From the NCBI GenBank assembly GCA_041288095.1, contig JBGGMJ010000075.1:1-52090 (forward strand): a stretch of 52,090 bases of DNA, given 5' to 3'. The DNA is from Myxococcota bacterium. Its GTDB lineage: Bacteria; Myxococcota; XYA12-FULL-58-9; JALHOP01. Positions 9,441 to 50,985 of this stretch are shown here, in pieces (positions within the stretch are counted from its first letter, which is position 1; every line of letters starts with the position of its first letter). A program made the position numbers and the translations under genes. Under the pieces are notes generated by a model. The model had not been told where the DNA came from and made no database searches. It saw only the letters and a list, made by a program, of their open reading frames with translations.

Positions 9441-9464
9441 GGTGGAGTCCCTTCGTGAGGGTGC

Positions 9465-9491
9465 ATATCGACGCGGACGTGAAACGGTTGC
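9465..9491 (-). promoter_or_regulatory. Putative sigma28-like promoter GCAAC-N14-GTCGATAT
   Basis: Minus strand reads GCAAC cgtttcacgtccgc GTCGATAT, 24 nt upstream of the ATG at 9440; motif recurs upstream of other genes. Confidence 0.55.
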
Positions 9492-9526
9492 AGGACGCCG
9501 GGCCAAATGTCCCCGCATCTTCACCC

Positions 9527-25711: not shown

Positions 25712-26673
25712 CCACGCCCGCGCCGGCCCCGCGTCAAAGCATACGATCGCGCCGCCACCGACGCGTAGAATTGTGCCGCCGTCGCCGTGTAGTGGGATCG
25801 CCTCGGCGTCGTGTCCGTCGTCCAGGACGTCACTTTTTCCGCGCCGAAGATATTCGCCATGTTCTCGAAGTCCTCGCGCACGTTCACGAGCATGCGGGTC
25901 GCGCCACGGCGGAACGATAGGTCCGCGATCGTGGCAAGGAGCTCCGCCCAGGTGCGCAGCGGCAGGGCGCCGTCCTCGAGCACCATGTCGATCTCGCGCA
26001 CCGTGTCGCCATCGTAGTTTCTCGGGTGCTCGATGACGACGCCGACCGCGGCACCGCCACGTCGCACCGTGTAGACGTTCCTCGGCGAGTGCGCGTGATA
26101 CCGCGGATCGTCCGGCATGAACGTGGCGACGAGCTCGTCGACGGTGGGACCGCGCGCATAGCCGAGCGCTTGATGGTTCTGCGGCACCTCGAGCAGCGCG
26201 GCGATGCGCGCGAATTCGCTATAACGCGCCGTACCGAAGCTGGTACCGGCTCCCAGACGGACTGTGCGCGGCCATGGCTCCGCCGCGGCGGACGGCAGCG
26301 AAGGGTCGTCGAGCACGACCGTCAGCACACCGTTCGCAAGCGAGATCGGACGCGCACCGTAGCGAGCCCACACCGCCTCGCGCCGAGGATCGATGGGCAG
26401 CGCCACGCGCCAACGCAGCTGCCGCGCACCCGTCGCGAACAAGTGGGCGCAAAAGCGGCGCGACGAGGACAACCACCGGCTGACCGGCGCGACGATCCAC
26501 ACGTCGCGCACCCAGTCGTCAGCGAGCGCTAGCCCGCGATGAAAACAGACGGCTTCGCCATCGGTGCACATCGCGAGATCCGGGAGCGACCACGCGAAAC
26601 CTGGGAGCAGAGTGGGATCCTGGCGGAGCTGCGCGATGATCGCCGCAGCGTCCGCCTGGGATGCCGGCCTCAC
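25696..26673 (-). CDS. Putative tandem GNAT-fold (RimJ/SpeG-like) protein
   Basis: MRPASQADAAAI first strand; second unit VYTVRRGGAAVGVV...REIDMVL...SFRRGATRMLVNV; GTGA overlap with the upstream gene. Confidence 0.5.
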   Translation of the reverse strand: MRPASQADAAAIIAQLRQDPTLLPGFAWSLPDLAMCTDGEAVCFHRGLALADDWVRDVWIVAPVSRWLSSSRRFCAHLFATGARQLRWRVALPIDPRREAVWARYGARPISLANGVLTVVLDDPSLPSAAAEPWPRTVRLGAGTSFGTARYSEFARIAALLEVPQNHQALGYARGPTVDELVATFMPDDPRYHAHSPRNVYTVRRGGAAVGVVIEHPRNYDGDTVREIDMVLEDGALPLRTWAELLATIADLSFRRGATRMLVNVREDFENMANIFGAEKVTSWTTDTTPRRSHYTATAAQFYASVAARSYALTRGRRGRGQTTV

Positions 26674-27806
26674 GTATTCGCGCCGTTGCCTTGCTGATTG
26701 TTCGCGCCGCCGTTGCCCTGGCCGTTCTGACCATTCTGGCCGTTCACCGGCGCGGCGCCGTCTTGGACCTGGTCGGGGTTGAAGAGCGCGGCCATGGCAT
26801 TCGCCTGCTCGACCATGGCGATGATCGCCTCGGTGACCAGGTCTTGATTGCCCTGACCCTGCTGATTGCCGCCGGCCTGAGCCTGTTGAATCTGCTGTTG
26901 CAGATCTTCGATGAGGCCCTTGGTGTTGTTGATCTGCGCATCGAGCTGCGCGCGCTCGGTGTTTCTGCGGGCGACGTCGTCGGCCACCGCCGCCGTGTTG
27001 TTCGGCTGCGAGCCACCGTCGTCCTTCTTGCCACCGTCCGATTGCGCCGGCGGTTGCACCGCCTGCTGCTGCTCGGCCGCACCCAGCTTGTTGCGGTCTT
27101 CCGTCAGCCTGTCGAGACGGGCCTGCGCCGCTTGCAGCGCCGCGGTCAGACGCTTCATCGCGTCGTCGCGCTCGGTCTCGTCGCTCTTCATCATGATGCG
27201 CGCGAGCATGTAGGCGAGATCGGCGGTGTCGGTCTTACGCAAGCCGGCGGCTTGCATGAACCTGTTCATCGCGCCGCCGAGTGCCTTGTTCGCCGCAGCG
27301 CTCTTGCCGCCGGTGGCCACGACCGCGTTTGCCGCCTCGACGACTTCGCCCCAGCTCGCCGGGTTCTTGTTGACGGCTTGCTCGACGCGCACCAAACCTT
27401 CGGCGGTCGGATGGAAGTTGGCGACCTTGAGCGCCTCGATGAGGCTCGGGTTCTCGTCGATGTCGCGCTGGTAGTCTTCACGCGTGCGACCGAACGCAGC
27501 TTCGTTAACCAGCCGCTGCTCGTTCTGGGTAGGACCTTCACGCAACCGGACAGGAGCCGCGCCATTGGCGGCGCCGGCCGGAGCATTGGGGTCTCGCGGC
27601 GCCTGCGCGGCATTGGGGTCTCGGACTCCACGTGCGGCGTTGGGGTCACGAAGTCCCACCGCGGCGTTGGGGTCACGGACGTTCGCAGTACGAAGGCCCC
27701 CCGCAGCGTTTGCTTCGTTAGTCGCCCTGAGCCCTCGATTGGCTAGGTCGACGATGAACTGCGGTGGTCGGGTTGTCTGGATTCCAATGCGGTTGTTCTC
27801 AGCCAT
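26670..27806 (-). CDS. Q/N/G/A-rich coiled-coil protein with RDPNA repeats (harpin/translocator-like composition)
   Basis: No Cys, no signal peptide, heptad-like segments; GGAGG RBS. Confidence 0.7.
   Translation of the reverse strand: MAENNRIGIQTTRPPQFIVDLANRGLRATNEANAAGGLRTANVRDPNAAVGLRDPNAARGVRDPNAAQAPRDPNAPAGAANGAAPVRLREGPTQNEQRLVNEAAFGRTREDYQRDIDENPSLIEALKVANFHPTAEGLVRVEQAVNKNPASWGEVVEAANAVVATGGKSAAANKALGGAMNRFMQAAGLRKTDTADLAYMLARIMMKSDETERDDAMKRLTAALQAAQARLDRLTEDRNKLGAAEQQQAVQPPAQSDGGKKDDGGSQPNNTAAVADDVARRNTERAQLDAQINNTKGLIEDLQQQIQQAQAGGNQQGQGNQDLVTEAIIAMVEQANAMAALFNPDQVQDGAAPVNGQNGQNGQGNGGANNQQGNGANT
27583..27680 (-). repeat. Four 27-bp intragenic tandem repeats encoding RDPNA-containing 9-aa units
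   Basis: gc(a/g)ttggggtc(t/a)cg recurs at 27583, 27610, 27637 and 27664. Confidence 0.9.
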
Positions 27807-27911: not shown

Positions 27912-28574
27912 ATGACTCGCTTCCGACTCCTCAAACCCCTCGCCGTGCTGCCGGCCGCGGCGGTGTTCGCCTGGATCGTGGGCGTCATCCCGGCGGGCGG
28001 CACGCCGCCTCCCGCGCCGGTAACGCAGACAGCGATCGCGGCGATCGATGCGTGGGAAGTGCCGAGCGCCAACCACGGCGATCCCGACACCACGATGGCG
28101 GCCTGGACCGAGCTACCCAAGCGCGTGGCCCCTATGTCCAAGGCGGACTACCAGCGTGACCTCGAGAATCGCACGACCATGCCAGCGACCAAATCGGGTA
28201 TCGCCTTCGTCCCGAGCTCGTACGAGGACCACGTCGAGGCGACCGCCAGAAAGAACAGGCTGCGCTTCACGCGCCTCTGGTACTCCAGGACGCTAGACGC
28301 ACAGGTGCCCCCCGCCCTCCTCTCCTTTATGTCCGCTCCAGCGGTCGCCTGCGCCGAGCACACGTGGGCCTTCGCGCGCGAATACAGCGTGACCTTCGAG
28401 CTGTCTCCGAAGGGCACGGCCACGAACGTCGCCAGCGACGGACCGCCCGCGTTGGCCGAGTGCTTCACGAAGCGGCTCGCGGAGTGGAAGTTGCCCAACA
28501 ACCGGAAGAGCAAACAACAAGCAGGCGCCACCACCGGCAAGATCGTCCTTTCGTTCGTCGCCGTGAAGGTCTGA
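27912..28574 (+). CDS. Exported hypothetical protein with possible TonB-C/AgmX-like C-terminal domain
   Basis: N-terminal hydrophobic segment; VTFELSPKGTATNV...LAECFTKRLAEWKLP pattern. Confidence 0.5.
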   Translation: MTRFRLLKPLAVLPAAAVFAWIVGVIPAGGTPPPAPVTQTAIAAIDAWEVPSANHGDPDTTMAAWTELPKRVAPMSKADYQRDLENRTTMPATKSGIAFVPSSYEDHVEATARKNRLRFTRLWYSRTLDAQVPPALLSFMSAPAVACAEHTWAFAREYSVTFELSPKGTATNVASDGPPALAECFTKRLAEWKLPNNRKSKQQAGATTGKIVLSFVAVKV

Positions 28575-28579
28575 TCGGC

Positions 28580-29413
28580 GTGGATCTCGGCGGCGTTACG
28601 CTGCGACTCACCGAGGCGTTGGGCCTCGAGGGTCAGTGGTGGTTCGCGTTCATCCAGAGCTTCGTCGTCTTGGCGCTGTTCGCTGTTGCGTACATGCCCA
28701 TCGAGCGTATGTGGAGCATGCGCGCGCAAGGCATCATGCGACCGCGCTGGGCCACCGACCTCGCCTTCTTTTTCGGCCAGTACTGGGTCTTCGCCTTCGT
28801 CGCCGCGTACGTGCTGGCGCGTGCACGTGCCCTCATCGGGGTCACGAGCCCCGAATGGTTCGCGCGATGTCCGCTCGCCGTGCAGGTCGTGCTGGTCATC
28901 GCTCTCGGCGACCTCTGCGCGTATTGGGCGCACCGCGCCCAGCATCGCTTCGATCTGCTGTGGCGCTTTCACGCCGTGCACCACACCTCCGAGCACCTCG
29001 ATTGGCTCGCCGCGCATCGGGAGCACCCTCTCGACGGCATCTACACGCAGCTCGCCGTGAACCTGCCGGCCATGCTCCTGGGCTTCGGTATGGGCCCGAT
29101 CTTCTGGCTCGTCACCTTTCGCGGCATGTGGTCGATCTTGATCCACAGCAACACGCGCCTACCGCTCGGGCCGCTCAAACACCTACTCGGCGGACCGGAG
29201 CTGCATCACTGGCATCACGCCAAGGATCGCGACGCGCCGAACTACGGCAATCTCGCGCCGTGGACGGACCTCGTCTTCGGCACGCACGCCTGCCCTCCCG
29301 AGCCGCCGGGCGAGCTGGGCATCGATCAGCCGGCGGCCACCAGTTACTTGGGCTTGCTGCTCTGGCCCTTCAACCGCACCAGGCGGCCTTTCCGCTTCAC
29401 GATGTTCTTGTAG
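28580..29413 (+). CDS. Sterol desaturase/fatty acid hydroxylase family protein
   Basis: WAHRAQH, FHAVHH, IHSN, HHWHH and NYG; GTG start at 28580. Confidence 0.88.
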   Translation: MDLGGVTLRLTEALGLEGQWWFAFIQSFVVLALFAVAYMPIERMWSMRAQGIMRPRWATDLAFFFGQYWVFAFVAAYVLARARALIGVTSPEWFARCPLAVQVVLVIALGDLCAYWAHRAQHRFDLLWRFHAVHHTSEHLDWLAAHREHPLDGIYTQLAVNLPAMLLGFGMGPIFWLVTFRGMWSILIHSNTRLPLGPLKHLLGGPELHHWHHAKDRDAPNYGNLAPWTDLVFGTHACPPEPPGELGIDQPAATSYLGLLLWPFNRTRRPFRFTMFL

Positions 29414-29822: not shown

Positions 29823-30905
<1,083 letters not shown>

Positions 30906-30916
30906 GATGACCGGTC

Positions 30917-32707
30917 ATGCCCTTCAGCGACGACGCGTTCTTTTCGCGCCGGGCGTTTCTTCAAGCCTCGGCCACGGCTGTTCTATCCGCTAAAGCAGTC
31001 ATGCACCCGAGAGTGGCGCTCGCCGAGCCAGCGGGGGCCGCCAAGGGCACGGCGTCGGCGGCGCGTTACATCACGGCACGGCTCGCCCAGCACGGTGCGG
31101 ACATTCTCTTCGGCGTTCCCGGAGCGACATGCGACCCACTCTTCGCGGCCGCGGCGAGCACGAGCGGCGTATCGGTCGTCGTCGCCAGCAGTGACCTCGA
31201 AGCGGGATATGCGGCCGACGGTTTCGCGCGCATGCGAGGGCTTGGCGCCGTCTCCGTCACCTACGGTGTCGGCACGATGAGTCTCATCGGCGTCATCGCC
31301 GGCGCCTACGCCGAGCGCAGCCCGATCGTCGTCGTGAACGGCGGTCCCACGAAGCTCGATCTCAAGCTGCAACGCGAGCACCAAACGCTGTTCTCCCACT
31401 CGACGGGCAAGGAGCACTCCGACCTGACGATGTTCCGCGAGGTGACGGCGTACGCCGAGCGCGCCGAGTCCAAGGAGGACGTAGCGCGTGTCGTCGACGA
31501 GGCAATCGCCACGGCGCTCCGCGAGCGCCGTCCGGTCTACATCGAGATCCCCAAGGATGTCTGGGACGCTCCAGTCGGCGCCCCCGGAGCTACGCTGCGT
31601 GCCGCTCCACCGAGCTCCGGGCGCGAAGCGGCGCTGGCGGCGCGTATCCTCGAGCGGCTCGGCAACGCCAAACGCCCTCTCTTGCTCCTCGGCATCGAGC
31701 TGCAACGCTACGGCCTCGCCGAACAGGCCGCCGCCCTCGTGCGCAAGCTCGGCATTCCGTACGCCACGACCATGCTCGCCAAGGCCGTCATCCCCGAGAC
31801 CACCACCGGCTTCGCCGGCGTGTACATCGGCGCCAACTCCGTTCCAGCGGTCAGAGAGCTGGTCGACCAATCCGACACCATCCTCGCCTTGGGCTGTGTC
31901 TTCGGTCGCCAGTACCGCGAGCTCGTCACCAAGTCGGCCAAATCCCTGGTGTCCGCGGGGGGTGGCAAGGTCCGCTCGGGTAGCGAGTCGACACCCGCGG
32001 CGCTGGGAGCGTTGGTCGACGCGGCGCTCGCACAAACGTACGTAGCGCGCGCCGAGCACGCGACGCGCAACACGCTCTCCGGGAGAGACTTCGCGGCGCG
32101 ACGCAAGTCAGTGCCCAAGCGCACCGAGTCCTCCGGGCTCTCATACGACGCGGTGCTCGGCACCATCAGCGACTACCTCGACGACGCCTTCGCGGTCCTC
32201 ACCGACACCAGCCTCTCGATGTACCCGGCGGCCGACTTGAACATCGCCGCCAAGGGGGCCTTCGTATGCAATAGCGTATGGCAGGCGATCGGCTTTTCGG
32301 TCGGCGCCGCCGTCGGCGTTGCCCTGGCGAGCGGCAAGCGGCCGCTGGTGATCTGCGGCGACGGCGGCTTCCAGATGACCGCGCAAGCGTTGTCGACGAT
32401 GGCGCGAGCCGGCTTGAAGAGCATCGTCGTCGTGCTCGACAACGGGATCTACGGCATCGAGCAGTTCTTGCTCGAGCCGCGGTTCTTCGCCGGCGGCCCG
32501 AGCCACCTGCCGTACGTGGGTTTGAATCGCTGGAGCTATCCGGACCTCGCGCGCGCCCTCGGCTTCAAACAGGCGGAGACCATCACGAGCATCGCCGAGC
32601 TGAAGCGAGGGCTCGACAACGCTCGCGGCGCGAGCGGCCCCGTGCTGCTGAGCGTCGCGGTACCGCCACGCGACCTACCGGCGCAGCTCGTCAAGGAGCC
32701 GGCCTGA
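30917..32707 (+). CDS. Tat-signal ThDP-dependent enzyme of the 2-oxoacid decarboxylase (PDC/IPDC) family
   Basis: SRRAFLQ...ALA signal; FGVPG, AGYAADGFAR, RPVYIEIP and the GDGGFQM...DN ThDP motif. Confidence 0.85.
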   Translation: MPFSDDAFFSRRAFLQASATAVLSAKAVMHPRVALAEPAGAAKGTASAARYITARLAQHGADILFGVPGATCDPLFAAAASTSGVSVVVASSDLEAGYAADGFARMRGLGAVSVTYGVGTMSLIGVIAGAYAERSPIVVVNGGPTKLDLKLQREHQTLFSHSTGKEHSDLTMFREVTAYAERAESKEDVARVVDEAIATALRERRPVYIEIPKDVWDAPVGAPGATLRAAPPSSGREAALAARILERLGNAKRPLLLLGIELQRYGLAEQAAALVRKLGIPYATTMLAKAVIPETTTGFAGVYIGANSVPAVRELVDQSDTILALGCVFGRQYRELVTKSAKSLVSAGGGKVRSGSESTPAALGALVDAALAQTYVARAEHATRNTLSGRDFAARRKSVPKRTESSGLSYDAVLGTISDYLDDAFAVLTDTSLSMYPAADLNIAAKGAFVCNSVWQAIGFSVGAAVGVALASGKRPLVICGDGGFQMTAQALSTMARAGLKSIVVVLDNGIYGIEQFLLEPRFFAGGPSHLPYVGLNRWSYPDLARALGFKQAETITSIAELKRGLDNARGASGPVLLSVAVPPRDLPAQLVKEPA

Positions 32708-33918
32708 TGTCGCTGACACGACGCGACCTCCTCGTGGGTGCGTCCGTCATCGCGGGCGCGTCCATGTGGCCGGCGGCCGCCCGGGCCAAAGCCTTGCGCG
32801 ACGGAGAGCTTCTACCGGACCCGGACTTCTCGCAGCTGCGCGACAAGGATCCATATCTCATCGGTGTTCGCCCATACCGTCCTGGCGGAGTGCGGCTCGA
32901 AGTCGTACCCGAGCCGCTCGGTGGCAAGCGCATCATCCACAACTACGGACATGGTGGCGCGGGCATCACACTCTCGTGGGGCTGCGCATCCGTCGCCACG
33001 GATTTGATGCAGGGCTTGCTCGCCACGAGCACGACGCCGCCGAGCGTTGCCGTGCTGGGCACCGGTATCATCGGCCTCACCACCGCGACCGAGCTGCGGC
33101 GCCGCTGGCCGCGAATGCCGATCACCGTCTACGCCAAGAGCCTCGACCTCACGACGACGGTATCGTGGGTCGCGGGTGGCCAGTTCGAGCCGTCGGGCAT
33201 GCATCGCCTCTACACCACTCCCGAAGCCAAGAATGTTTTGGCGGACTACATGCGCCGCTCGCGGGATCGCATCGTCGAGCTGCAGAATTCGGGTAACCGC
33301 CAGGCGTTTGGCGTCGCGGTGCGCAAGAACTACACGCTCGACCGCCAAGTCCCCGCGCTCGACGTCGTGACGCCGCGTGACGTCGTCGGTGCGCCGGTGC
33401 GCGGCAGTCTCCCCTTCAAGAACCTCAACGCGCCGGGCCGTGAGTATCAGACATGGCTCATGACTCCCGCGATTCTGATGCCGAAGCTGGTCACGGACCT
33501 GCAATCCGCGGGAGTGCGCTTCGAGGCACGAACCTTCGAGTCAGCGGCCGATGTCGCGCAGCTCCCGGCCACCGTCGTGGTCAATTGCACGGGCTACGGG
33601 GCAAAGCAGCTCTTCGGCGACAAGTCGCTCATCGCGCAGCGCGGGCACAACGTCGTTCTCAAGAAGACCGACGAGCGGCAACACTATTTTTTCAGCGGTG
33701 GCTGCGCCAACTGGGTGATCGCCTATGCGTTCTGTCGGCAAGACGACATCGTCATCGGTGGCACCATTCAGAAAGATCTCGAGTCGCCGGCGCACACCTC
33801 CGCGGACGAGGCGATCTTCGCGCGCTTGCTGGCGAACGGCCGCGAGCTCTTCGCCGGAAACACCAAAGCGTGCGTCGCGCCGACGGGCGAGGCCGACTCT
33901 TCAGCCCCAGCCCGCTAG
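32707..33918 (+). CDS. Tat-signal, circularly permuted D-amino-acid oxidase family flavoprotein
   Basis: TRRDLL signal; GVRPYR and HNYGHGGAGITLSWG precede the Rossmann GTGIIG; VVNCTGYGA; TGATG overlap with the upstream gene. Confidence 0.85.
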   Translation: MSLTRRDLLVGASVIAGASMWPAAARAKALRDGELLPDPDFSQLRDKDPYLIGVRPYRPGGVRLEVVPEPLGGKRIIHNYGHGGAGITLSWGCASVATDLMQGLLATSTTPPSVAVLGTGIIGLTTATELRRRWPRMPITVYAKSLDLTTTVSWVAGGQFEPSGMHRLYTTPEAKNVLADYMRRSRDRIVELQNSGNRQAFGVAVRKNYTLDRQVPALDVVTPRDVVGAPVRGSLPFKNLNAPGREYQTWLMTPAILMPKLVTDLQSAGVRFEARTFESAADVAQLPATVVVNCTGYGAKQLFGDKSLIAQRGHNVVLKKTDERQHYFFSGGCANWVIAYAFCRQDDIVIGGTIQKDLESPAHTSADEAIFARLLANGRELFAGNTKACVAPTGEADSSAPAR

Positions 33919-33937: not shown

Positions 33938-35026
33938 ATGCAAACCCCCTGGGCCATCGACGCCGACATCACGAAGGCGGAAACGTTGCCCGGGCAGGCC
34001 TACACCGATCCGCGCATCTTCGAGCAGTCACGCGAGAAGGTCTTCGCGGCGAGTTGGCAGCTGCTTTCGGATCTCGGTCGAGTAGGCGCTCCCGGTGCCG
34101 TCTGTCCGACCCGCTTCATCGACGGCTGGATCGAGGAGCCGTTGCTGTTCACGCGCGACCTCGAGGGTGGGCTGCACTGCGTCTCGAATGTGTGCACCCA
34201 TCGCGGCAATCTGGTGTGCGAGCAGGAAGGCGTCGAGCGCGCGCTCAAGTGCCGCTATCACGGACGACGCTTCCGCCATGACGGGGGTTTCGTGTCGATG
34301 CCCGAGTTCGAAGGCGTCCAAGCGTTTCCGTCCCGCAAAGACGATCTCCCCAGGGTCGCGTTCGGGGAGTGGAAAAACCTGCTCTTTGCGTCGCTCGCTC
34401 CAGCGCAGCCCTTCGCGGAGCTCATCGCGTTCCTGCAAGCGCGCGTCGGCTGGCTGCCCCTCGAGAACGCCAAGCTCGATCGCGCCCGCAGCCGCTCCTA
34501 TGACATCGCGGCGAACTGGGCGCTCTACTGCGACAACTATCTCGAAGGCTTTCACATCCCCTACGTGCATGCCGGCCTGAACCGCGTCATCGACTACGGT
34601 GACTACCGCACCGAGCTGTTCGACGGCGGCACGTTGCAAATCGGCACCGCGAAGAAGGCCGAGCACGCCTTCACCCTGCCCCGCTCGTCACCCGATCACG
34701 GTGAGCTCGTCGCCGCCTACTACTTCTGGCTGTTCCCCAACACGATGCTGAACTTCTACCCATGGGGCCTATCGGTGAACCGGGTGAAGCCGCGCGCCGT
34801 CGACCGCACCACGGTCGAGTACCTGACGTACGTATGGGACGCGACGCGGCTCGACCAAGGCGCCGGCAGTGGGCTCGACCAGGTGGAGAAGGAGGATCAA
34901 GAAGTCGTCGTCAGCGTCCAGCACGGAGTGCGATCACGACTCTATGATCGCGGACGCTACTCGCCGACGCGCGAGACCGGTCTGCACCATTTCCACCGCA
35001 TGCTGACGCAGTCTCTGAACGCTTGA
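33938..35026 (+). CDS. Rieske non-heme iron oxygenase alpha subunit (choline monooxygenase-like)
   Basis: CTH...CRYH Rieske ligands; NYLEGFHIPYVH and ED mononuclear Fe site. Confidence 0.88.
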   Translation: MQTPWAIDADITKAETLPGQAYTDPRIFEQSREKVFAASWQLLSDLGRVGAPGAVCPTRFIDGWIEEPLLFTRDLEGGLHCVSNVCTHRGNLVCEQEGVERALKCRYHGRRFRHDGGFVSMPEFEGVQAFPSRKDDLPRVAFGEWKNLLFASLAPAQPFAELIAFLQARVGWLPLENAKLDRARSRSYDIAANWALYCDNYLEGFHIPYVHAGLNRVIDYGDYRTELFDGGTLQIGTAKKAEHAFTLPRSSPDHGELVAAYYFWLFPNTMLNFYPWGLSVNRVKPRAVDRTTVEYLTYVWDATRLDQGAGSGLDQVEKEDQEVVVSVQHGVRSRLYDRGRYSPTRETGLHHFHRMLTQSLNA

Positions 35027-36339
35027 GCGGACCGACACCTCACCTCGCGCGGCGCCTGAGCCTCTGGGACGGCGTCATGCTCACGGTCGGCGCCATCGTC
35101 GGCACCGGCATCTTCATGACGCCGAGCGAGATGGCGAGAACCCTGCCCCACGCGGGCCTGCTGGTGCTGATTTGGCTGCTCGCCGGCACCGTCATCGTCG
35201 CGGGCGCGGCGAGCTACGCCGAGCTGGGCACGCTCTTTCCCCGGGCCGGTGGTGTCTATCATTTTCTCCACGAAGCGTATGGCCCCTTCTACGGCTTCCT
35301 CTACGGCTGGACGTGTTTCCTCATCATCATGTCGGGGGGTATCGCGGCGATCGCCACCGGCTTCGGTCACTACTTCGTCAGCTTCGTGCCCCTGCCGGGC
35401 GGCGCTCAAACGGCGGCCGTGCTCGCAATCGTCCTGCTCACCGCGGTCAACACGCTCGGCGTACGCGAGGGCGCTTGGGTCCAGAACGGGCTGACCGTCA
35501 TCAAGGTCGTGTCGCTCGCCGGCTTCATCGTGCTGGGTTGGATGACACCGTCGGCGGCAGCACCCGCCTGGGCGGACGCCGTCCCGACACCGGGGCTCGC
35601 GAGCGCCGTCGGTGTCGCGATGATCGCCGCCCTTTGGGCCTACGATGGCTGGTACGCCATGACGTTTTCGGCCGGCGAGCTCAAGGACCCGGCACGCAGC
35701 CTGCCGCGCGGAATGGTCGGCGGCGTTGCCGCGACAGTCGCCATCTACGCCGCCGCCATGGCGGTGTACGCGCGAGTGTTGCCTATCGACGTCATCGCCG
35801 CGGCTCCGCGCCTCGCCGAAACCGCGGCCACGGCGATGCTCGGTGAGGGCGCGGGCCGGCTCATGTCGGCCGCTATCGCGGTCTCGGCGTTCGGCTGCCT
35901 CTCGGCGACGATCTTCTACAGCTCACGCGTCTATGCACCGATGGCGCAAGCTGGTGTCTTTTTTCGCGCGCTGGCCGTCATCCATCCGCGATACCGCACA
36001 CCCGTTCGCAGCCTTTGGGCACAGAGCACATGGGCGTGTGTCCTCGTGTTGTCGGGCTCGTACGCGCGGCTCTACACGTATGTCACCTTCGCTTCCGTGG
36101 CCTTCCACGTCGCGACCGGCGCGGCGGTCCTCGTCTTGCGCAGGAAGCTGCCGGACGCGCCACGGCCATACCGGGTCTGGGGCTACCCGATCATTCCGGC
36201 GCTGTTCATCGCGGCCATGATGGCGCTCGTCATCAATACGCTCATAGAGAGCCCACGCGAGTCTCTCATCGGAGTCGCGTTGGTCCTCCTCGGCGCGCCG
36301 ACCTATTTCTATTGGCGCCGCACCAAGGCCGCGGCATAA
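35023..36339 (+). CDS. APC family amino acid permease
   Basis: IVGTGIF, YAELG, ALWAYDGW and RPYRVWGYP; about 12 TM. Confidence 0.92.
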   Translation: MSGPTPHLARRLSLWDGVMLTVGAIVGTGIFMTPSEMARTLPHAGLLVLIWLLAGTVIVAGAASYAELGTLFPRAGGVYHFLHEAYGPFYGFLYGWTCFLIIMSGGIAAIATGFGHYFVSFVPLPGGAQTAAVLAIVLLTAVNTLGVREGAWVQNGLTVIKVVSLAGFIVLGWMTPSAAAPAWADAVPTPGLASAVGVAMIAALWAYDGWYAMTFSAGELKDPARSLPRGMVGGVAATVAIYAAAMAVYARVLPIDVIAAAPRLAETAATAMLGEGAGRLMSAAIAVSAFGCLSATIFYSSRVYAPMAQAGVFFRALAVIHPRYRTPVRSLWAQSTWACVLVLSGSYARLYTYVTFASVAFHVATGAAVLVLRRKLPDAPRPYRVWGYPIIPALFIAAMMALVINTLIESPRESLIGVALVLLGAPTYFYWRRTKAAA

Positions 36340-36345
36340 GCGCGC

Positions 36346-36780
36346 ATGCTCTCGGTCGAAATCTTTCGCTACCCGCTGCTGGTCACCATCGCCTACGCGG
36401 TGCTTTACTATCTGACGACGGTCAACGTCGCGCTGGTGAAGGGGAAGCTCTTCCGGGAGTACCAGGCCAAGGGCGAGAAGTTCGACCGCTATCGCACGCC
36501 GGACGCACGGATGCTCGCGGCCGACCGCATCCAGCTCAACATGCTCGAGCAGATGCCGGTCTTTCTGGTGCTGTTCTGGCTCACGGCCGTGTTCGCGAGC
36601 CCACTGCGCGCGGCCGGCTACGGCGCCGCCTACCTCGCCTCGCGCATCGTCTATCCCTTGATGATGGGCACCCAGCTCGGGCGCAACATCCCGAAACGCA
36701 TCCTCTTCGCCACCGTGACCGGCTACCTGGTCATCGCGGCGTTCGTGATCGAGCTCGCTTTGGTCACGCTCTTGCGCTGA
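36346..36780 (+). CDS. MAPEG family membrane protein
   Basis: DRIQLNMLEQMPVF and YLASRIVY; 4 TM. Confidence 0.85.
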   Translation: MLSVEIFRYPLLVTIAYAVLYYLTTVNVALVKGKLFREYQAKGEKFDRYRTPDARMLAADRIQLNMLEQMPVFLVLFWLTAVFASPLRAAGYGAAYLASRIVYPLMMGTQLGRNIPKRILFATVTGYLVIAAFVIELALVTLLR

Positions 36781-36781
36781 C

Positions 36782-38878
36782 TCAGTCGACCACGAGCTCG
36801 AAAACGAGCTGATAGAGGCCATCCGCGATCTCGGAGTAGGTCGTCGTCTCGAGCGTCTGGCTGTCGATGATGCCGTCGTTGTCGGTGTCGGCGCGACTCA
36901 GTCGCGTGAGTTGGTTGCCGAACGCGTCGTAGGTCCGGTCGCTGGTTCTGCGAGAATCGACTGTGCCATCGCCGCCGTCGTCGTCCTCGACGACCTCGGA
37001 GAGTAGATTGAGCTGCTCGTCGTGGACCCGCGTCGTCGTGCTGATGAAGTCCGGCGCGTCGTCGGCGTCGTTGTCGATCGTGAGTGTCTGATTCAACGGA
37101 CGCCCGTCATCGAGGTAGGACCTGGTCTCGGCCGATCGGTAGTCGATCGTACCGTCGGCATCGCTGTCCTCTTCGTAAACGTGGCCGAGCGAGTTGCCGT
37201 TGGCGTCGTAGGTGAAGTTGGTATGCGCCAGCGCGATGACGGCGTCACCGCTCCGCACCTCGGTGGCCTGCATGAGCACGTGCCCCGCTTCGTCCAGGGC
37301 ATAGGTGACGGTCTCGCGCGAGTTGACGACCCCGTCAGCGTTGCTGTCGGTCTCGGTCACGGCTTGCGTGAGAAATCCGCCGGCGTTCCACGTGCGCGAA
37401 TCGGTGACGATACTGTTCGTGACCCCGTCGCCGTTGATGTCGGTCTCGATCCGGCTGGTGACCCGGCGGCCAGCCAAGTCATACGTGCTCGTCTCGGAAC
37501 GACGGCTCTCGACGGACCCGTTCCCTCCGTCGTCGTTCTCCTGGAGCGTGGTCAGCAAGTTGCCCGCGGTGTCGTACGTGTAGGTGAACGACTGCTTGAG
37601 CCCGATGATGCCGTTCGTGGTGTCCTGCACGATGAGGCTGCTGGCGTAACCATCGCTATCGAAGACATAGGTGTACGACTCGACGCGCTCGAACACGCCG
37701 TCCTGGGCCCCGTCCCTCCGGTACTCGGCGCTGATAACCCTGCCGCGAGCGTCGTATGTGGTGGTGTCGTCGCGATCGACGAGGCCGTTTGCGTCGACAT
37801 CGCTGCGAACGCGGATGACGCGGCCGAGCTCGTCGACCGTCAGCGTGCTCGTCACATCCGCCGCGCCGTCGTTCCCGTAATCGGCGGCGTACGTCGCGGC
37901 CACGTGCGCGGGCACGCTGAGGCCCAGCGTCGCGTAGAGGTGAGGCAAGACAGCGGCGACATCGATGTTGCGGTCGATGCCGGGATGCGCCGCGGCGAAA
38001 CGCTGAAACGACCCGAAGGCGAACGCGCCAAAGCCCTCGTCGAAGGCGAAAGGCACGCCGGCGAGGGTCGCACCCCAGCTCGTCACGTCGATACCGTTCG
38101 CGGGGTCGCGGTCGGCGTCGAGCGCTTGCAGGAAGAGCGCAACGTTCGCGGCACGATCGAAATCGGTGACGACGTCATCGCGCAAGAGCTCGCGGAGCTC
38201 GGCCGCGTCGGTCGGCGGCGCGATGCCGAAGAGGTCGAAGGGAGAGATGCGGTCTTTGCCCGCGAGGGTGCCGAGGACGACACCGCCGACGGTGAAAGTC
38301 ACGGTCTCGCCACCGGCGTACTCGAACTCGCCCTTGGCGTTGGTGAGGCCCTGTCGGGTGAGCGTCTGGTAATGCAGACCGATGACCGGACCGTCGACGA
38401 ACACGCCGGTGCGCACGTCGTCGGTACACGCGAAAGGGTTGAGGCACATGACCGCTAAAGCGGCCGCGAGACTGCTCCGAGCTCGCTTCGCGACGATCAT
38501 GCCGGCCACCAGCGCAACGATGAACACCAACGTCGCCGGCGCCAGAGCGGCGATGCTCACGAACGCGGGTCCGGGACAATAGCCAGAGAGCCCCCAACCG
38601 ACGCCGAAAATGGCGGCGCCCGAAAGCAAGCGCGGGTCGAGCTTCGCGGCTGGGGTCGGCTCGAACGCATCCGCGAGCAGTGGTGCTCCGCGGCGGCGGA
38701 TGAAGAACGCGCTCGCCGCATAGGTGCCTACCGCGCCGGCCATGACGAACGCCAAGCTCGGGTCCCAGGCGCCAGCGATGTCGAGGAAGCCGACGACCTT
38801 CGAGGGCCAGGTCATCCCCGAGAGGCATAGGCCGGCGCCAAAGAGGAGACCAGCCAGCAACGCGGTGAGGACCTTCAC
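36782..38878 (-). CDS. YeeE/YedE-type (DUF6691-like) membrane domain read in frame into an adhesin-like DxDxDG/YD-repeat lipoprotein domain
   Basis: GTG 38878; GLLFGAGL...FLDIAGAWDPSL...GYCPGP; no stop before FAC-TDD...GVFVDGPVIGLHYQT and about 10 TYD-xxG / DxDxDG repeats; possible internal ATG at 38500. Confidence 0.7.
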   Translation of the reverse strand: MKVLTALLAGLLFGAGLCLSGMTWPSKVVGFLDIAGAWDPSLAFVMAGAVGTYAASAFFIRRRGAPLLADAFEPTPAAKLDPRLLSGAAIFGVGWGLSGYCPGPAFVSIAALAPATLVFIVALVAGMIVAKRARSSLAAALAVMCLNPFACTDDVRTGVFVDGPVIGLHYQTLTRQGLTNAKGEFEYAGGETVTFTVGGVVLGTLAGKDRISPFDLFGIAPPTDAAELRELLRDDVVTDFDRAANVALFLQALDADRDPANGIDVTSWGATLAGVPFAFDEGFGAFAFGSFQRFAAAHPGIDRNIDVAAVLPHLYATLGLSVPAHVAATYAADYGNDGAADVTSTLTVDELGRVIRVRSDVDANGLVDRDDTTTYDARGRVISAEYRRDGAQDGVFERVESYTYVFDSDGYASSLIVQDTTNGIIGLKQSFTYTYDTAGNLLTTLQENDDGGNGSVESRRSETSTYDLAGRRVTSRIETDINGDGVTNSIVTDSRTWNAGGFLTQAVTETDSNADGVVNSRETVTYALDEAGHVLMQATEVRSGDAVIALAHTNFTYDANGNSLGHVYEEDSDADGTIDYRSAETRSYLDDGRPLNQTLTIDNDADDAPDFISTTTRVHDEQLNLLSEVVEDDDGGDGTVDSRRTSDRTYDAFGNQLTRLSRADTDNDGIIDSQTLETTTYSEIADGLYQLVFELVVD

Positions 38879-39297
38879 GGCGTCACCAGCAGCACGTGGC
38901 GCACGATGAACACGGTCATGCCCGCGGTGAGCATGAACACCAGCGTCGCGGCGATGGAGCGCGGCGAGCCCCGGCCGATGCCACAGACACCGTGTCCGCT
39001 CGTACAACCATTGCCCATGCGTGTACCGAAGCCGACCAAGAACCCCGCGCCGATGATCGTCGGCCATCGGGTCATGATGCCCGGGCCAATGGCGCCGGAC
39101 GCGAGCACGCTGAACATCGCGCCCGCGGCCACGAGCCCGATCACGAACGCGAGGTCGATGGCACGCGTGTCGCGGCGCCCATCGACGAGGCGCCCGACAA
39201 TGCCGCTGATCCCCGCGACACGGCCGTGCACCAGGAGCAGCAAGGCCGCCGCCAACCCGATGACGACGCCGCCGATCAGTGGCGCGATGACGCTCAC
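38875..39297 (-). CDS. YeeE/YedE family sulfur-compound transporter subunit
   Basis: GRVAGISG and GFGTRMGNGCTSGHGVCG. Confidence 0.92.
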   Translation of the reverse strand: MSVIAPLIGGVVIGLAAALLLLVHGRVAGISGIVGRLVDGRRDTRAIDLAFVIGLVAAGAMFSVLASGAIGPGIMTRWPTIIGAGFLVGFGTRMGNGCTSGHGVCGIGRGSPRSIAATLVFMLTAGMTVFIVRHVLLVTP

Positions 39298-47617: not shown

Positions 47618-50600
47618 CTAGAGGTTGCGCCGGTACTCGCCGCCGACAGCGTAGAGCGCATTGGTGATCTGACCCAGGCTGCAATGCTCGGTGGCGTCGA
47701 TGAGCGCTTCGAAGAGATTGCCATCTTTTCTGGCCACCTCCTTGAGCTTCTCGAGGGCTTTCGGCGCCGCGTCCTTGTGCTCGCCCTGGAAGGCTTCGAG
47801 ACGACCGATGGCGGCCTTCTTCTCCTCGGCCGAAGCGCGCGAGAGCTGAACGTCCCGCGGGATGGCGGCGGCGTTTTGATTCCTCGGTAAGAACGTGTTG
47901 ACACCGATGATCGGCAGCTCTCCCGAGTGCTTGAGCATCTCGTACTTCATCGAATCGTCTTGGATCTGGCCGCGCTGATATTGACGCTCCATGGCGCCGA
48001 GGACGCCACCGCGCTCGGTGAGTCTGTCGAACTCCGCTAAAACGGCCTCTTCGACGAGGTCCGTGAGCTCTTCGACGATGAACGAGCCTTGGCTCGCGTT
48101 CTCGCAGTTCACCAGGCCGAACTCTTTGTTGATGATGAGCTGAATCGCCATGGCGCGGCGCACGCTCTGCTCGGTAGGCGTCGTAATCGCCTCGTCGTAG
48201 GCGTTGGTGTGCAGCGACTGCGCGTTGTCGAAGGTCGCGAGCAGCGCCTGCAGCGTGGTGCGCACGTCGTTGAACTCGATCTCCATGGCGTGCAACGACC
48301 GGCCGCTCGTCTGGATGTGATACTTCAACATCTGCGAGCGCGCGTCGGCGCCATAGAGGCGCTTCATCGCCACCGCCCAGATGCGCCGAGCGACGCGGCC
48401 GATGACCGTGTACTCGGGGTCCATGCCGTTCGAGAAGAAGAACGACAGATTGGGCGCGAAAGCGGACACGTCCATGCCGCGCGAGCGGTAATACTCTACG
48501 TAGGTGAAACCGTTGGCCAGCGTATAAGCGAGCTGGTGGATCGGGTTCGCCCCTGCTTCGGCGATGTGGTAGCCGCTGATCGAGACCGAGTAGAAGTTCC
48601 GCACTTGCTGGTCGATGAAGTACTGCTGGACGTCGCCCATCGCCTTGAGCGCGAACTCGGTCGAGAAGATGCAGGTGTTCTGGCCCTGGTCTTCCTTCAG
48701 AATGTCCGCTTGAACGGTGCCGCGGACTTGGCGGAGCGTCTGCGCCTTGAGCCGCGCGAATTCGTCGTCCGCGAGCAGCTTGCGGACCTCCGGCCATGAC
48801 GATCCGCGAAGGCGATCGTGTTGGAGGTCTTGCTCGGGCGTGATCTTCAGGCGGCCTTGCGTGCGCAACCAACGGCGGCACTGCTGGCGGATCGCCGTGT
48901 TGATGAAGAAGGCGAGCACCGTAGGCGCCGGACCGTTGATGGTCATCGAGACGCTGGTGGTGGGATCGCAGAGATCGAAGCCGGCGTAGAGTTGCTCGGC
49001 CTCCTCGGCGGTCGATACGGAGACGCCGCTCTCGCCAATCTTGCCGTAGATGTCGGCGCGCTCGCCGGGATCCTCGCCATAGAGGGTGATCGAGTCGAAC
49101 GCGGTGGAGAGGCGCTTCGCCGGCTGACCGTCGGCGAGGTAATGGAAACGCTTGTTGGTGCGATCGGCGCCGCCCTCGCCCGCGAACATGCGCGTGGGAT
49201 CCTCGGCCGTCCGCTTGAACGGAAACGTGCCCGACGTGTACGGGAACTCGCCGGGGACATTCTCGAGGAGCCGCCAATAAAGCCGGTCGCCGGCGCCGCG
49301 ATAGCGCGCGCGCGCGACCTTGCGCACCTTCAGGCCCGATAGCGACTCGCGATAGTTTTCGACCTCGACGGTCTTGCCGCGCACATCGTAGGAGAATTTC
49401 TCACCGTCGTAGCGCGCCGCCCACTGCGGCCACTCGTCGAGGATGGCCTTGGCCTCGGGGGCGAGACGCCCTTGCAACAGATCACGCTCGCGGATGAGAT
49501 CCAGGGAGGAGGGCTCACCGACGATGGCGGCGGCGCGGTTGATGGCGTAGACGTCGTCGGCCAGGTCGGCCTGATCGCGCGCCCATTGGCGATAGTCGCG
49601 GCAGGTGTCCGAGATCTCGGACAGGTAGCGCTCCCGACCCGCGGGGACGACGTGCGATTTGGGCGAGCTCTGGCGGGTAGCGCCGGCTTCGTAGCTCGAC
49701 ACGAGTGACGCGTCGTACTTGGCGTTCACCGCCTGCACGAGGTGCGCGTAGAGCGCGTTGACGCCGTCGTCGTTGAAGTGGGCGGCGCTGGTGCCGAAGA
49801 CCGGGAGCTTCTCGAGATCGATGCCGGGCTTGCCACGCGAGCGCGCGACCTGACGCCGGACGTCGCGCAGCGCATCGGCCGAGCCGCGCCGCGTGAACTT
49901 GTTGATGACCACGAAGTCGGCTTGGTCGAGCATATCGATCTTCTCGAGCTGCGACTGGGCTCCATATTCGGCGGTCATGACGTACATCGAGAGATCGGCG
50001 AGATCCGTTACAGCGGAGTCACCCTGGCCGATGCCGGCGGTCTCGACGAAGATGACGTCGAAGCTGCCTTCGCGCGCCATGAGCTGCAGCACCGCATGAG
50101 CGTGGGCGCTGATCTCGCTCCCCGAGCCACGGGTCGCCATCGAGCGCATGAAGACGCGCGGTGACTTCAGGGAGTTCATGCGGATGCGGTCCCCGAGCAG
50201 AGCGCCGCCGGTCTTTTTCTTGGTGGGATCGATACACAATACGCCGACGCGGGTCTTCGGACCGTCGGCGATGAACCGGCGCACCAGCTCGTCGGTAAGC
50301 GAGCTCTTGCCCGCGCCGCCGGTGCCGGTGAGGCCAATGATGGGAACGCGCTTTGCCGGCTCTTTGCTCTTGTTGGGATCGAGCTGACCCGCTTCGACCA
50401 TCGAGATGCGACGCGCGAGCGGCATCCAGCCTTGGCCTTCGAGCGCCTTGTCGGCGGCGAAGTCGCAGCCCTTGATGACCTCGTCGATCATCCCCTGCAG
50501 ACCCATGTTGCGGCCGTCTTCGGGCGAGAAGACGCGATCGATGCCGCGCTTGTGCAGCTCCTCGATTTCGCTCGCCACGATGACGCCGCCACCACCGCCG

Positions 50601-50893
50601 TAGATGCGGGTGTGCTTGGCGCCCAGGGCATCCAGGCGCTCGCGGAGGTACGTGAAGTACTCCATGTGGCCGCCCTGGTAGCTGGTGAGGGCAATACCCT
50701 GCGCATCCTCTTGGACGGCGGCGTTCGCGACTTCTTCCACGGCGCGGTTGTGGCCCAGGTGGATGACCTCGGCGCCGGAGGCCTGCATGATTCGCCGCAT
50801 GACGTTGATGGCGGCGTCGTGACCGTCGAAGAGAGCGGCGGCGCTGACGATCCGCACGGCGTGTTTGGGGCGATAGTGTTGCGGCTCTGTCAT
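47618..50893 (-). CDS. icmF: Fused isobutyryl-CoA mutase/GTPase IcmF
   Basis: B12-binding FDGHD domain, GTGGAGKSS G-protein domain, and mutase RMFAGEG...RLSTAFD...GTVQADILKE. Confidence 0.95.
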   Translation of the reverse strand: MTEPQHYRPKHAVRIVSAAALFDGHDAAINVMRRIMQASGAEVIHLGHNRAVEEVANAAVQEDAQGIALTSYQGGHMEYFTYLRERLDALGAKHTRIYGGGGGVIVASEIEELHKRGIDRVFSPEDGRNMGLQGMIDEVIKGCDFAADKALEGQGWMPLARRISMVEAGQLDPNKSKEPAKRVPIIGLTGTGGAGKSSLTDELVRRFIADGPKTRVGVLCIDPTKKKTGGALLGDRIRMNSLKSPRVFMRSMATRGSGSEISAHAHAVLQLMAREGSFDVIFVETAGIGQGDSAVTDLADLSMYVMTAEYGAQSQLEKIDMLDQADFVVINKFTRRGSADALRDVRRQVARSRGKPGIDLEKLPVFGTSAAHFNDDGVNALYAHLVQAVNAKYDASLVSSYEAGATRQSSPKSHVVPAGRERYLSEISDTCRDYRQWARDQADLADDVYAINRAAAIVGEPSSLDLIRERDLLQGRLAPEAKAILDEWPQWAARYDGEKFSYDVRGKTVEVENYRESLSGLKVRKVARARYRGAGDRLYWRLLENVPGEFPYTSGTFPFKRTAEDPTRMFAGEGGADRTNKRFHYLADGQPAKRLSTAFDSITLYGEDPGERADIYGKIGESGVSVSTAEEAEQLYAGFDLCDPTTSVSMTINGPAPTVLAFFINTAIRQQCRRWLRTQGRLKITPEQDLQHDRLRGSSWPEVRKLLADDEFARLKAQTLRQVRGTVQADILKEDQGQNTCIFSTEFALKAMGDVQQYFIDQQVRNFYSVSISGYHIAEAGANPIHQLAYTLANGFTYVEYYRSRGMDVSAFAPNLSFFFSNGMDPEYTVIGRVARRIWAVAMKRLYGADARSQMLKYHIQTSGRSLHAMEIEFNDVRTTLQALLATFDNAQSLHTNAYDEAITTPTEQSVRRAMAIQLIINKEFGLVNCENASQGSFIVEELTDLVEEAVLAEFDRLTERGGVLGAMERQYQRGQIQDDSMKYEMLKHSGELPIIGVNTFLPRNQNAAAIPRDVQLSRASAEEKKAAIGRLEAFQGEHKDAAPKALEKLKEVARKDGNLFEALIDATEHCSLGQITNALYAVGGEYRRNL

Positions 50894-50985
50894 CGTGCCG
50901 TAACGTCTAGCAGCAACAACGCGGGCTTGACGAGACCGCCGCGATCCCATTGCGGTCCGCGAAAACCATGGTTAAAACACTGCCT

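Follow-up and report, generated by a model that had tools for sequence, protein, structure and literature searches.

A thiamine diphosphate enzyme and a circularly permuted D-amino-acid-oxidase-like flavoprotein with twin-arginine leaders: a candidate periplasmic pathway in Myxococcota

The 52,090-nucleotide stretch analysed here (the window; contig JBGGMJ010000075.1 of assembly GCA_041288095.1) comes from a metagenome-assembled genome of a Myxococcota bacterium (5.85 Mb, ~90% complete). On its forward strand lie two adjoining genes whose products both begin with a predicted signal for twin-arginine translocation (Tat), and which may together form a periplasmic amino-acid pathway. Gene A (30917-32707; 596 aa including the leader) encodes a thiamine diphosphate (ThDP)-dependent enzyme with the fold of pyruvate, indolepyruvate and phenylpyruvate decarboxylases (PDC, IPDC and PPDC), while gene B (32707-33918; 403 aa including the leader) encodes a circularly permuted D-amino-acid-oxidase-like flavoprotein, referred to below as pDAO. 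The TGA stop codon of gene A (32705-32707) and the ATG of gene B (32707-32709) have one base in common (TGATG), and a Shine-Dalgarno-like AAGGAG read from the sequence (32693-32698, forward strand) lies inside the 3′ end of the ThDP gene, 8 nt ahead of the pDAO start. The overlap and the AAGGAG together suggest translational coupling of the two genes. A preliminary description of this DNA had reported the gene pair with its coordinates, the TGATG overlap, the twin-arginine motifs and the AxA-type cleavage sites, and each detail proved correct on re-reading the sequence. Database sequencing runs containing the stretch consist of soil and cave metagenome DNA only, with no RNA run among them.

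pDAO is a member of the Pfam family DAO (PF01266), which it matches in two stretches with 92.6 bits against a gathering cut-off of 27.9. Residues 50-106 (32854-33024, forward strand) correspond to the C-terminal part of canonical D-amino-acid oxidase (DAAO), comprising G-x-R-P-x-R ... HNYGHGG-x-G and the next helix. After it, at residues 112-403, come the Rossmann start (VAVLGTGIIGL) and the remainder of the DAAO fold (33040-33915, forward strand), where Pfam DAO aligns over residues 114-384 with profile positions 2-299. The canonical order, with the Rossmann start first and GxRPxR...HNYGHGG last, is thus not the order of pDAO, and because its C-terminal DAAO motif precedes the Rossmann start we regard the protein as circularly permuted. 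The swapped order is seen against human D-aspartate oxidase (DASPO), with pDAO residues 52-110 matching chain residues 284-343 and residues 112-357 matching 13-249, and again in NCBIfam, where residues 51-103 match positions 352-401 of the 429-position DadA model. The AlphaFold model of pDAO (predicted local distance difference test score, pLDDT, 85.3; predicted template modelling score 0.84) has as its best fold matches human and pig DAAO and DASPO (2du8, 1kif, 6rkf; E ~1e-13, ~285 sequentially alignable columns, ~20-22% identity).

Conservation was read from an alignment of 25 of the best 120 pDAO homologues. The flavin site GxGxxG (VLGTGIIGL) stands at residue 114 instead of the N-terminus, with G118, G120 and G123 invariant, and in the relocated segment G53, R55, P56, R58 and H78-G84 are invariant or nearly so. 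R55 aligns with the substrate-carboxylate Arg of DAAO and Y340 with the active-site Tyr of DASPO, both again invariant or nearly so; the matched sites of human DAAO are, in the numbering we take to apply, Arg283, Gly313 and Tyr228. At the position of the DASPO Arg that binds the side-chain carboxylate, which we presume to be Arg216, pDAO has Phe329, a weak hint that its substrates may be uncharged. The active-site lid loop of DAAO is replaced by a family-specific FFSGGC-x-N, and a further family-specific segment, L-R-x-G-E-x-L-P-x-P-x-F, follows the leader. pDAO therefore resembles DAAO and DASPO in its Pfam family, its best sequence and fold matches, GxGxxG, the carboxylate Arg, the HNYGHGG loop and the active-site Tyr. 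It differs from them in that the last ~55 DAAO residues come first, the lid loop is replaced, an extra segment follows the leader and a Tat leader is present. DAAO itself is peroxisomal or cytoplasmic.

The permuted oxidases form a large family, since a fragment spanning the junction (137 aa, residues 30-166) matched 722 cluster representatives at 50% identity (E ≤ 1e-10) among 1.84 billion; of its best 150 matches, 144 run across the junction in one stretch. Two long homologues were considered as possible fusions to a ThDP enzyme. P0311 (1042 aa) has a C-terminal permuted oxidase domain after ~700 residues that contain no Pfam family and is not such a fusion, and P0214 (863 aa) has out-of-frame-looking stretches between and after its domains and is read as a frameshifted metagenome gene call. 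A literature search found no description of a permuted DAAO.

The ThDP enzyme has the three Pfam domains TPP_enzyme_N (residues 48-152), TPP_enzyme_M (242-331) and TPP_enzyme_C (441-580). Its best sequence matches in the PDB are PDC, IPDC and PPDC (E 1e-54 to 1e-48), profile comparisons with decarboxylases of the PDC/IPDC/PPDC/KdcA/KivD type gave E-values of 1e-89 to 1e-71, and its AlphaFold2 model (mean pLDDT 88.4) superimposes on PDC, IPDC and PPDC structures with target-normalised TM-scores of 0.82-0.89. In an alignment of 28 of the best 120 ThDP homologues, the GDG...DN cofactor and Mg motif is intact, with G481, D482 and G484 invariant and G483, D508, N509 and G510 at least 90% conserved. 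Profile alignment to PDC structures places Asp93 at the cofactor-activating Glu in most rows (Glu is kept in the leaderless P0228 and P0231, an acidic residue thus being retained throughout), Ala70 at the catalytic Asp, Ser160 and His161 at the His-His pair, with His161 invariant, and an invariant Asp430 at the second catalytic Glu. In Zymomonas mobilis PDC we take the corresponding residues to be Glu50 for cofactor activation and Asp27, His113, His114 and Glu473 for catalysis. Glu473, as well as D28 and E477 of the yeast enzyme, is named in the titles of matched PDB entries. A first pairwise alignment had put the His-His pair on His155/Gln156, but the profile comparison, like conservation within the family, places it on Ser160/His161. 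In all likelihood the protein is a functional ThDP enzyme with a 2-oxo acid as its substrate. With PDC, IPDC, PPDC, KdcA and KivD it shares the three-domain fold, the GDG...N motif and one catalytic His, and it differs from them in its Tat leader, its Asp/Ala/Ser/Asp substitutions, its scores below the NCBIfam cut-offs and its obligate genomic partner, an oxidase.

These substitutions leave room for an exported pair with other chemistry, an explanation that we consider rather unlikely. According to it, pDAO would be a dehydrogenase of another amine (e.g., an opine, an N-alkyl amino acid or an aminophosphonate) that passes electrons to a periplasmic acceptor instead of O2, and the ThDP enzyme would be a lyase or carboligase rather than a decarboxylase. 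One point in favour is NicA2, a homologue of flavin amine oxidases that is exported via Tat and passes its electrons to a cytochrome c, not to O2. Others are the differences at three of the four PDC acid/base residues, the Asp at the cofactor-activating position, and the exchange of the DAAO lid loop for FFSGGC-x-N. Additionally, the title of PDB entry 3oe1 describes the Z. mobilis Glu473Asp variant with the 2-lactyl-ThDP intermediate bound, and the same position is Asp here. However, the carboxylate-binding Arg, the Tyr and HNYGHGG, which are typical of alpha-amino-acid oxidases, are invariant in pDAO, its best folds are DAAO and DASPO rather than opine or sarcosine oxidases, and no gene for a cytochrome or other acceptor is conserved beside the pair.

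Both N-termini have the three parts of a Tat signal, judged by rule and by eye: an S/T-R-R-x-F-L-K-like motif, a mildly hydrophobic uncharged stretch and an AxA site. The predicted signal peptide of the ThDP enzyme (residues 1-36; 30917-31024, forward strand) reads ..FSRRAFLQASATAVLSAKAVMHPRVALA up to a cleavage site placed by eye and continues with EP; it combines FSRRAFLQ, 13 uncharged residues and ..VALA/EP. That of pDAO (residues 1-27; 32707-32787, forward strand) reads MSLTRRDLLVGASVIAGASMWPAAARA, likewise with a cleavage site placed by eye, followed by KA; it combines LTRRDLL, 18 uncharged residues and ..AARA/KA. For each protein the best 120 homologues were inspected. A regular expression matched RR with hydrophobic residues in the N-terminal extension of 103 ThDP homologues, and reading by eye added 4 (~107/120); the counts for pDAO homologues were the same (103 and 4; ~107/120). 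Homologues without the motif are mostly N-truncated gene calls, and five ThDP homologues begin right at the mature domain. A more stringent requirement, RR with 12 or more uncharged residues after it in the first 60 positions, was passed by 101/120 ThDP homologues compared with 0/120 internal control stretches, and by 88/120 pDAO homologues compared with 16/120 controls. In the alignments, R5 and R6 of pDAO are at least 90% conserved, and the RR of the ThDP leader is visible by eye in 25 of the 28 rows, the three others (P0228, P0231 and P0238) being leaderless. In the AlphaFold model of the ThDP enzyme the leader is unstructured, with pLDDT below 50 at residues 1-13 and 15-42, and the fold becomes confident at about residue 45. 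Same-genus genomes are alignable with the ThDP enzyme from residue 1 at 82-83% identity, which points to the upstream start as the one in use; this argues against a downstream start, which the preliminary description had named as a way for its reading to fail. TatC is encoded in the genome (220 bits). These observations support both leaders as conserved Tat-type signals and not chance features, as had been proposed from the window alone, and we infer that both proteins are exported and their leaders cleaved.

The pairing of the two genes was examined in an even sample of 401 Myxococcota genomes, with thresholds of E ≤ 1e-40 for pDAO and E ≤ 1e-80 for the ThDP enzyme. Each protein was found in 18 genomes, and these are the identical 18; every one has the genes next to each other on a single strand, ThDP gene then oxidase gene. 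A ThDP enzyme without pDAO was never seen in this sample. Across phyla, 80 loci were fetched with an oxidase alignment, of which L001-L031 hold full-length permuted oxidases, and the ThDP gene adjoins pDAO in 17 of these 31. All-against-all clustering of open reading frames in L001-L031 found no other conserved neighbour of pDAO. At the 14 loci where pDAO lacks the ThDP gene, 8 oxidases have leaders and 6 do not, and two of the loci (L008 and L024) are on contigs below 5 kb. Five pDAO-only genomes were searched whole: four have no ThDP match at E ≤ 1e-30, two of them being ~3-Mb assemblies, and the fifth has a 32%-identical ThDP gene ~18 kb away. Loci with pDAO alone, together with the lack of any genome with the ThDP enzyme alone in the phylum sample, fit an order in which the oxidase acts first and the ThDP enzyme, where present, uses what the oxidase produces.

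The 14 loci with pDAO alone could also be taken to mean that the genes are neighbours by chance and their products serve unrelated functions. This is very improbable and close to refuted by the 18 of 18 carriers in which the two genes adjoin in a constant order, by the congruent trees of the two proteins and by the one-base overlap with its Shine-Dalgarno sequence. The ThDP tree (17 rows; the fragmented L021 and L029 left out) has the same three groups as the oxidase tree (26 rows; L005, L010, L012, L015, L029 and L030 left out for open, unanchored or fragmented frames). In the oxidase tree, the Xanthobacteraceae oxidases L008 and L009 nest in the Myxococcota group (SH-aLRT 95 for the enclosing set), which suggests transfer between phyla. 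The ThDP gene is absent from both of these loci, L008 being a 4.2-kb contig, and the genome of L009 (G401) has no match at E ≤ 1e-30.

Leaders are found on both proteins in 10 pairs (the window, L001-L004, L006, L010, L011, L013 and L014) and on neither in 4 intact pairs from Alphaproteobacteria and Actinomycetota (L019, L020, L022 and L031, the last two from Nonomuraea and Actinomadura), and no mixed pair was seen where both N-termini are readable. In L005 a leader was seen on the ThDP enzyme, whose N-terminus was the one read there, L007 has its ThDP gene truncated where the contig ends, and L021 and L029 are fragmented in the gene calls and show no leader. The leaderless pDAO forms stand on one side of one branch, and the leader label changes once on the oxidase tree. 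Taken at the level of predicted signals, this agreement shows a shared compartment for the two proteins in both clades and inheritance as a unit.

The leaderless sister clade also bears on a further explanation, namely that the RR leaders do not yield soluble periplasmic enzymes, being either uncleaved membrane anchors or unused, in which case the pair would serve a cytoplasmic route like that of D-arginine dehydrogenase and 2-ketoarginine decarboxylase. We consider this improbable. In its favour, the chemistry of the pair evidently works in the cytoplasm if the sister clade is taken as a guide, the operon in the window includes a leaderless Rieske oxygenase and an amino-acid permease, and the hydrophobic region of the ThDP leader is short, with 13 uncharged residues, and interrupted by Lys, His and Arg. 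On the other hand, the leader pattern including AxA is conserved though the mature parts are only 48-60% identical, both partners have leaders in every intact pair of the Tat clade, and the Rieske and permease genes are missing from one same-genus genome.

The reading that we slightly favour is that the pair is a self-contained module with coupled translation, that Tat exports both proteins folded and loaded with cofactors, and that they convert an amino acid in the periplasm to a 2-oxo acid and then to an aldehyde or acyloin. In the first step, pDAO would oxidise the alpha-amino group of an amino acid to an imino or 2-oxo acid; by its fold and conserved substrate-binding residues, the substrate would most likely be a D-amino acid with an uncharged side chain, and electrons would pass to O2, yielding H2O2, or to another acceptor. 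In the second, the PDC-fold ThDP enzyme would decarboxylate the 2-oxo acid to an aldehyde or couple it to an acyloin, coupling being considered because the ThDP acid/base residues are altered. The role may be the scavenging or detoxification of D-amino acids, or the release of aldehyde and peroxide. The substrate, electron acceptor, product and physiological role named here are what we infer. Favouring this chemistry, GxGxxG, the carboxylate Arg, HNYGHGG and the Tyr of pDAO are invariant or nearly so, and the ThDP enzyme keeps GDG...DN and one invariant His. A complex prediction for the mature ThDP enzyme with mature pDAO scored 0.00, below the mark, and speaks neither for nor against binding.

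Several observations weigh against the module as so described. Relative to PDC, the profile alignment has four catalytic or cofactor positions altered and one His retained, and the ThDP enzyme misses the NCBIfam cut-offs for TIGR03394 (IPDC/PPDC; 246.9 versus 554.5 bits) and TIGR03393 (225.5 versus 946); because of the altered positions and the missed IPDC/PPDC cut-off, simple decarboxylation is not assured. ThDP active sites span a dimer, so that a holo-dimer of ~120 kDa would have to pass through Tat, for which we know of no precedent in print. Neighbour clustering found no peroxide-handling enzyme, cytochrome or aldehyde dehydrogenase conserved beside the pair, and the same gene string in the window includes the leaderless oxygenase and the permease. 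Furthermore, since the leader label changes once on the oxidase tree, the agreement in leaders between the two proteins amounts to one evolutionary event.

The two-step extracytoplasmic pathway had already been put forward in the preliminary description, and the conserved leaders and the strict pairing (18/18) support it in part, while its chemistry is a prediction; the pair, whose lack of conservation was named there as grounds for refutation, is conserved, with all carriers among the 401 genomes having the genes adjacent. The suggested source in prey peptidoglycan fared less well, finding no support, since the Tat-bearing pair also occurs in Alphaproteobacteria that are not predators, for example Chelatococcus, Bosea and Hyphomicrobium. 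Free D-amino acids act on the cell wall from the periplasmic side, and scavenging or detoxifying them is an equally good guess.

The genes around the pair vary more than the pair itself, which is retained in both same-genus genomes examined (G030 and G066). A lipoprotein-like gene with a VVAGC lipobox recognised by eye (29823-30905, forward strand) ends 11 bp ahead of the ThDP gene; its product has Gly/Asn-rich repeats and a beta-helix-like look and no Pfam or NCBIfam family, and the gene, which we class as accessory, has a counterpart in G030 (89% identity) but none in G066 or in the other related loci. Downstream lie a leaderless Rieske oxygenase alpha subunit (33938-35026, forward strand; Pfam Rieske and Ring_hydroxyl_A; weakly GbcA-like, with 62.6 bits against a cut-off of 670) and, overlapping it by 4 bases, an APC/L-type amino-acid permease (35023-36339, forward strand; Pfam AA_permease_2). 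These two make up a cassette that is present in G066, absent from G030 and beside no other related pDAO locus, and there is no reductase gene beside it. The operon is flanked by an OlsE-like ornithine-lipid hydroxylase (28364-29413; 114.7 bits, under the cut-off of 475) and a MAPEG-family membrane protein (36346-36780), which in G030 comes directly after the oxidase. The Rieske oxygenase, permease, lipoprotein and OlsE-like hydroxylase were rejected as pathway members, as they are not conserved beside pDAO and vary within the genus. Alpha/beta-hydrolase or peptidase-like neighbours (L001, L004, L006 and L013) are too varied to be a conserved third gene. In Chelatococcus reniformis (L011), a leaderless 4-oxalocrotonate-tautomerase-family gene (MPHVIV..; 9208-9522, reverse strand) stands directly after the Tat-bearing ThDP gene; it is present in only 1 of the 17 paired loci and is at most a weak hint of enolisable arylpyruvate intermediates.

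Three genes on the reverse strand farther from the pair were recorded in passing. One (36782-39067) encodes a protein of 761 aa in which DUF6691 is combined with an RHS repeat; its three consecutive tblastn matches in G030 suggest that polymorphic RHS-type proteins form a tandem family. Another (26670-27806), which has no Pfam family and is kept in both same-genus genomes, encodes a low-complexity protein of 378 aa with RDPNAA-like repeats and a Gln/Asn/Gly-rich tail. The third (47618-50950) joins a B12-binding domain, a MeaB-type GTPase and methylmalonyl-CoA mutase in one chain of 1110 aa and has the look of an IcmF-type fused mutase.

Two cytoplasmic routes offer the closest parallels. In Pseudomonas aeruginosa, the D-arginine dehydrogenase DauA carries out flavin-dependent oxidation of the amino acid, and the 2-ketoarginine decarboxylase AruI then performs ThDP-dependent decarboxylation to an aldehyde; the Ehrlich pathway is likewise cytoplasmic. 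The two-step logic of these routes is the same as that proposed for pDAO and its partner, but DauA is not permuted, and the ThDP enzyme scores 165.7 bits against the AruI model, whose cut-off is 500. Relative to DauA/AruI and the Ehrlich route, what is new is where the pathway would operate, the permutation of the oxidase, the changes in the ThDP active site and how strictly the two genes are paired. Beyond the preliminary description go the circular permutation, which is new, the altered active site, which is new relative to PDC/IPDC-type enzymes, and the recognition of the Rieske oxygenase and permease as variable accessories. A literature search found nothing on a Tat-exported ThDP enzyme, in keeping with the earlier remark that no characterised example was known. 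A passage in one preprint (bioRxiv 10.64898/2026.08.28.747804) concerns a different M. xanthus oxidase gene.

Tentatively, and with somewhat less confidence than in the module itself, we propose that this is the first extracytoplasmic PDC-type ThDP enzyme, adding thiamine diphosphate to the cofactors carried by Tat, and that together with a new permuted branch of DAAO it may form a periplasmic module that irreversibly converts environmental or cell-wall D-amino acids to aldehydes or acyloins, ammonia and peroxide, either guarding the cell wall from foreign D-amino acids or releasing reactive products. Cultured carriers exist (Chelatococcus reniformis CGMCC 1.12919 and Bosea vestrisii CCUG 43114), which makes the idea directly testable. 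In the permuted oxidases nature has provided an experiment in flavoenzyme topology as well as a new scaffold for biocatalysts of the DAAO type, and the sister clades with leaders on both proteins or on neither are a clean system for the changes needed when a two-enzyme pathway switches compartment. If export is true, the list of cofactors moved by Tat grows, and ThDP-dependent carbon-carbon chemistry would take place outside the cytoplasm in many soil bacteria.

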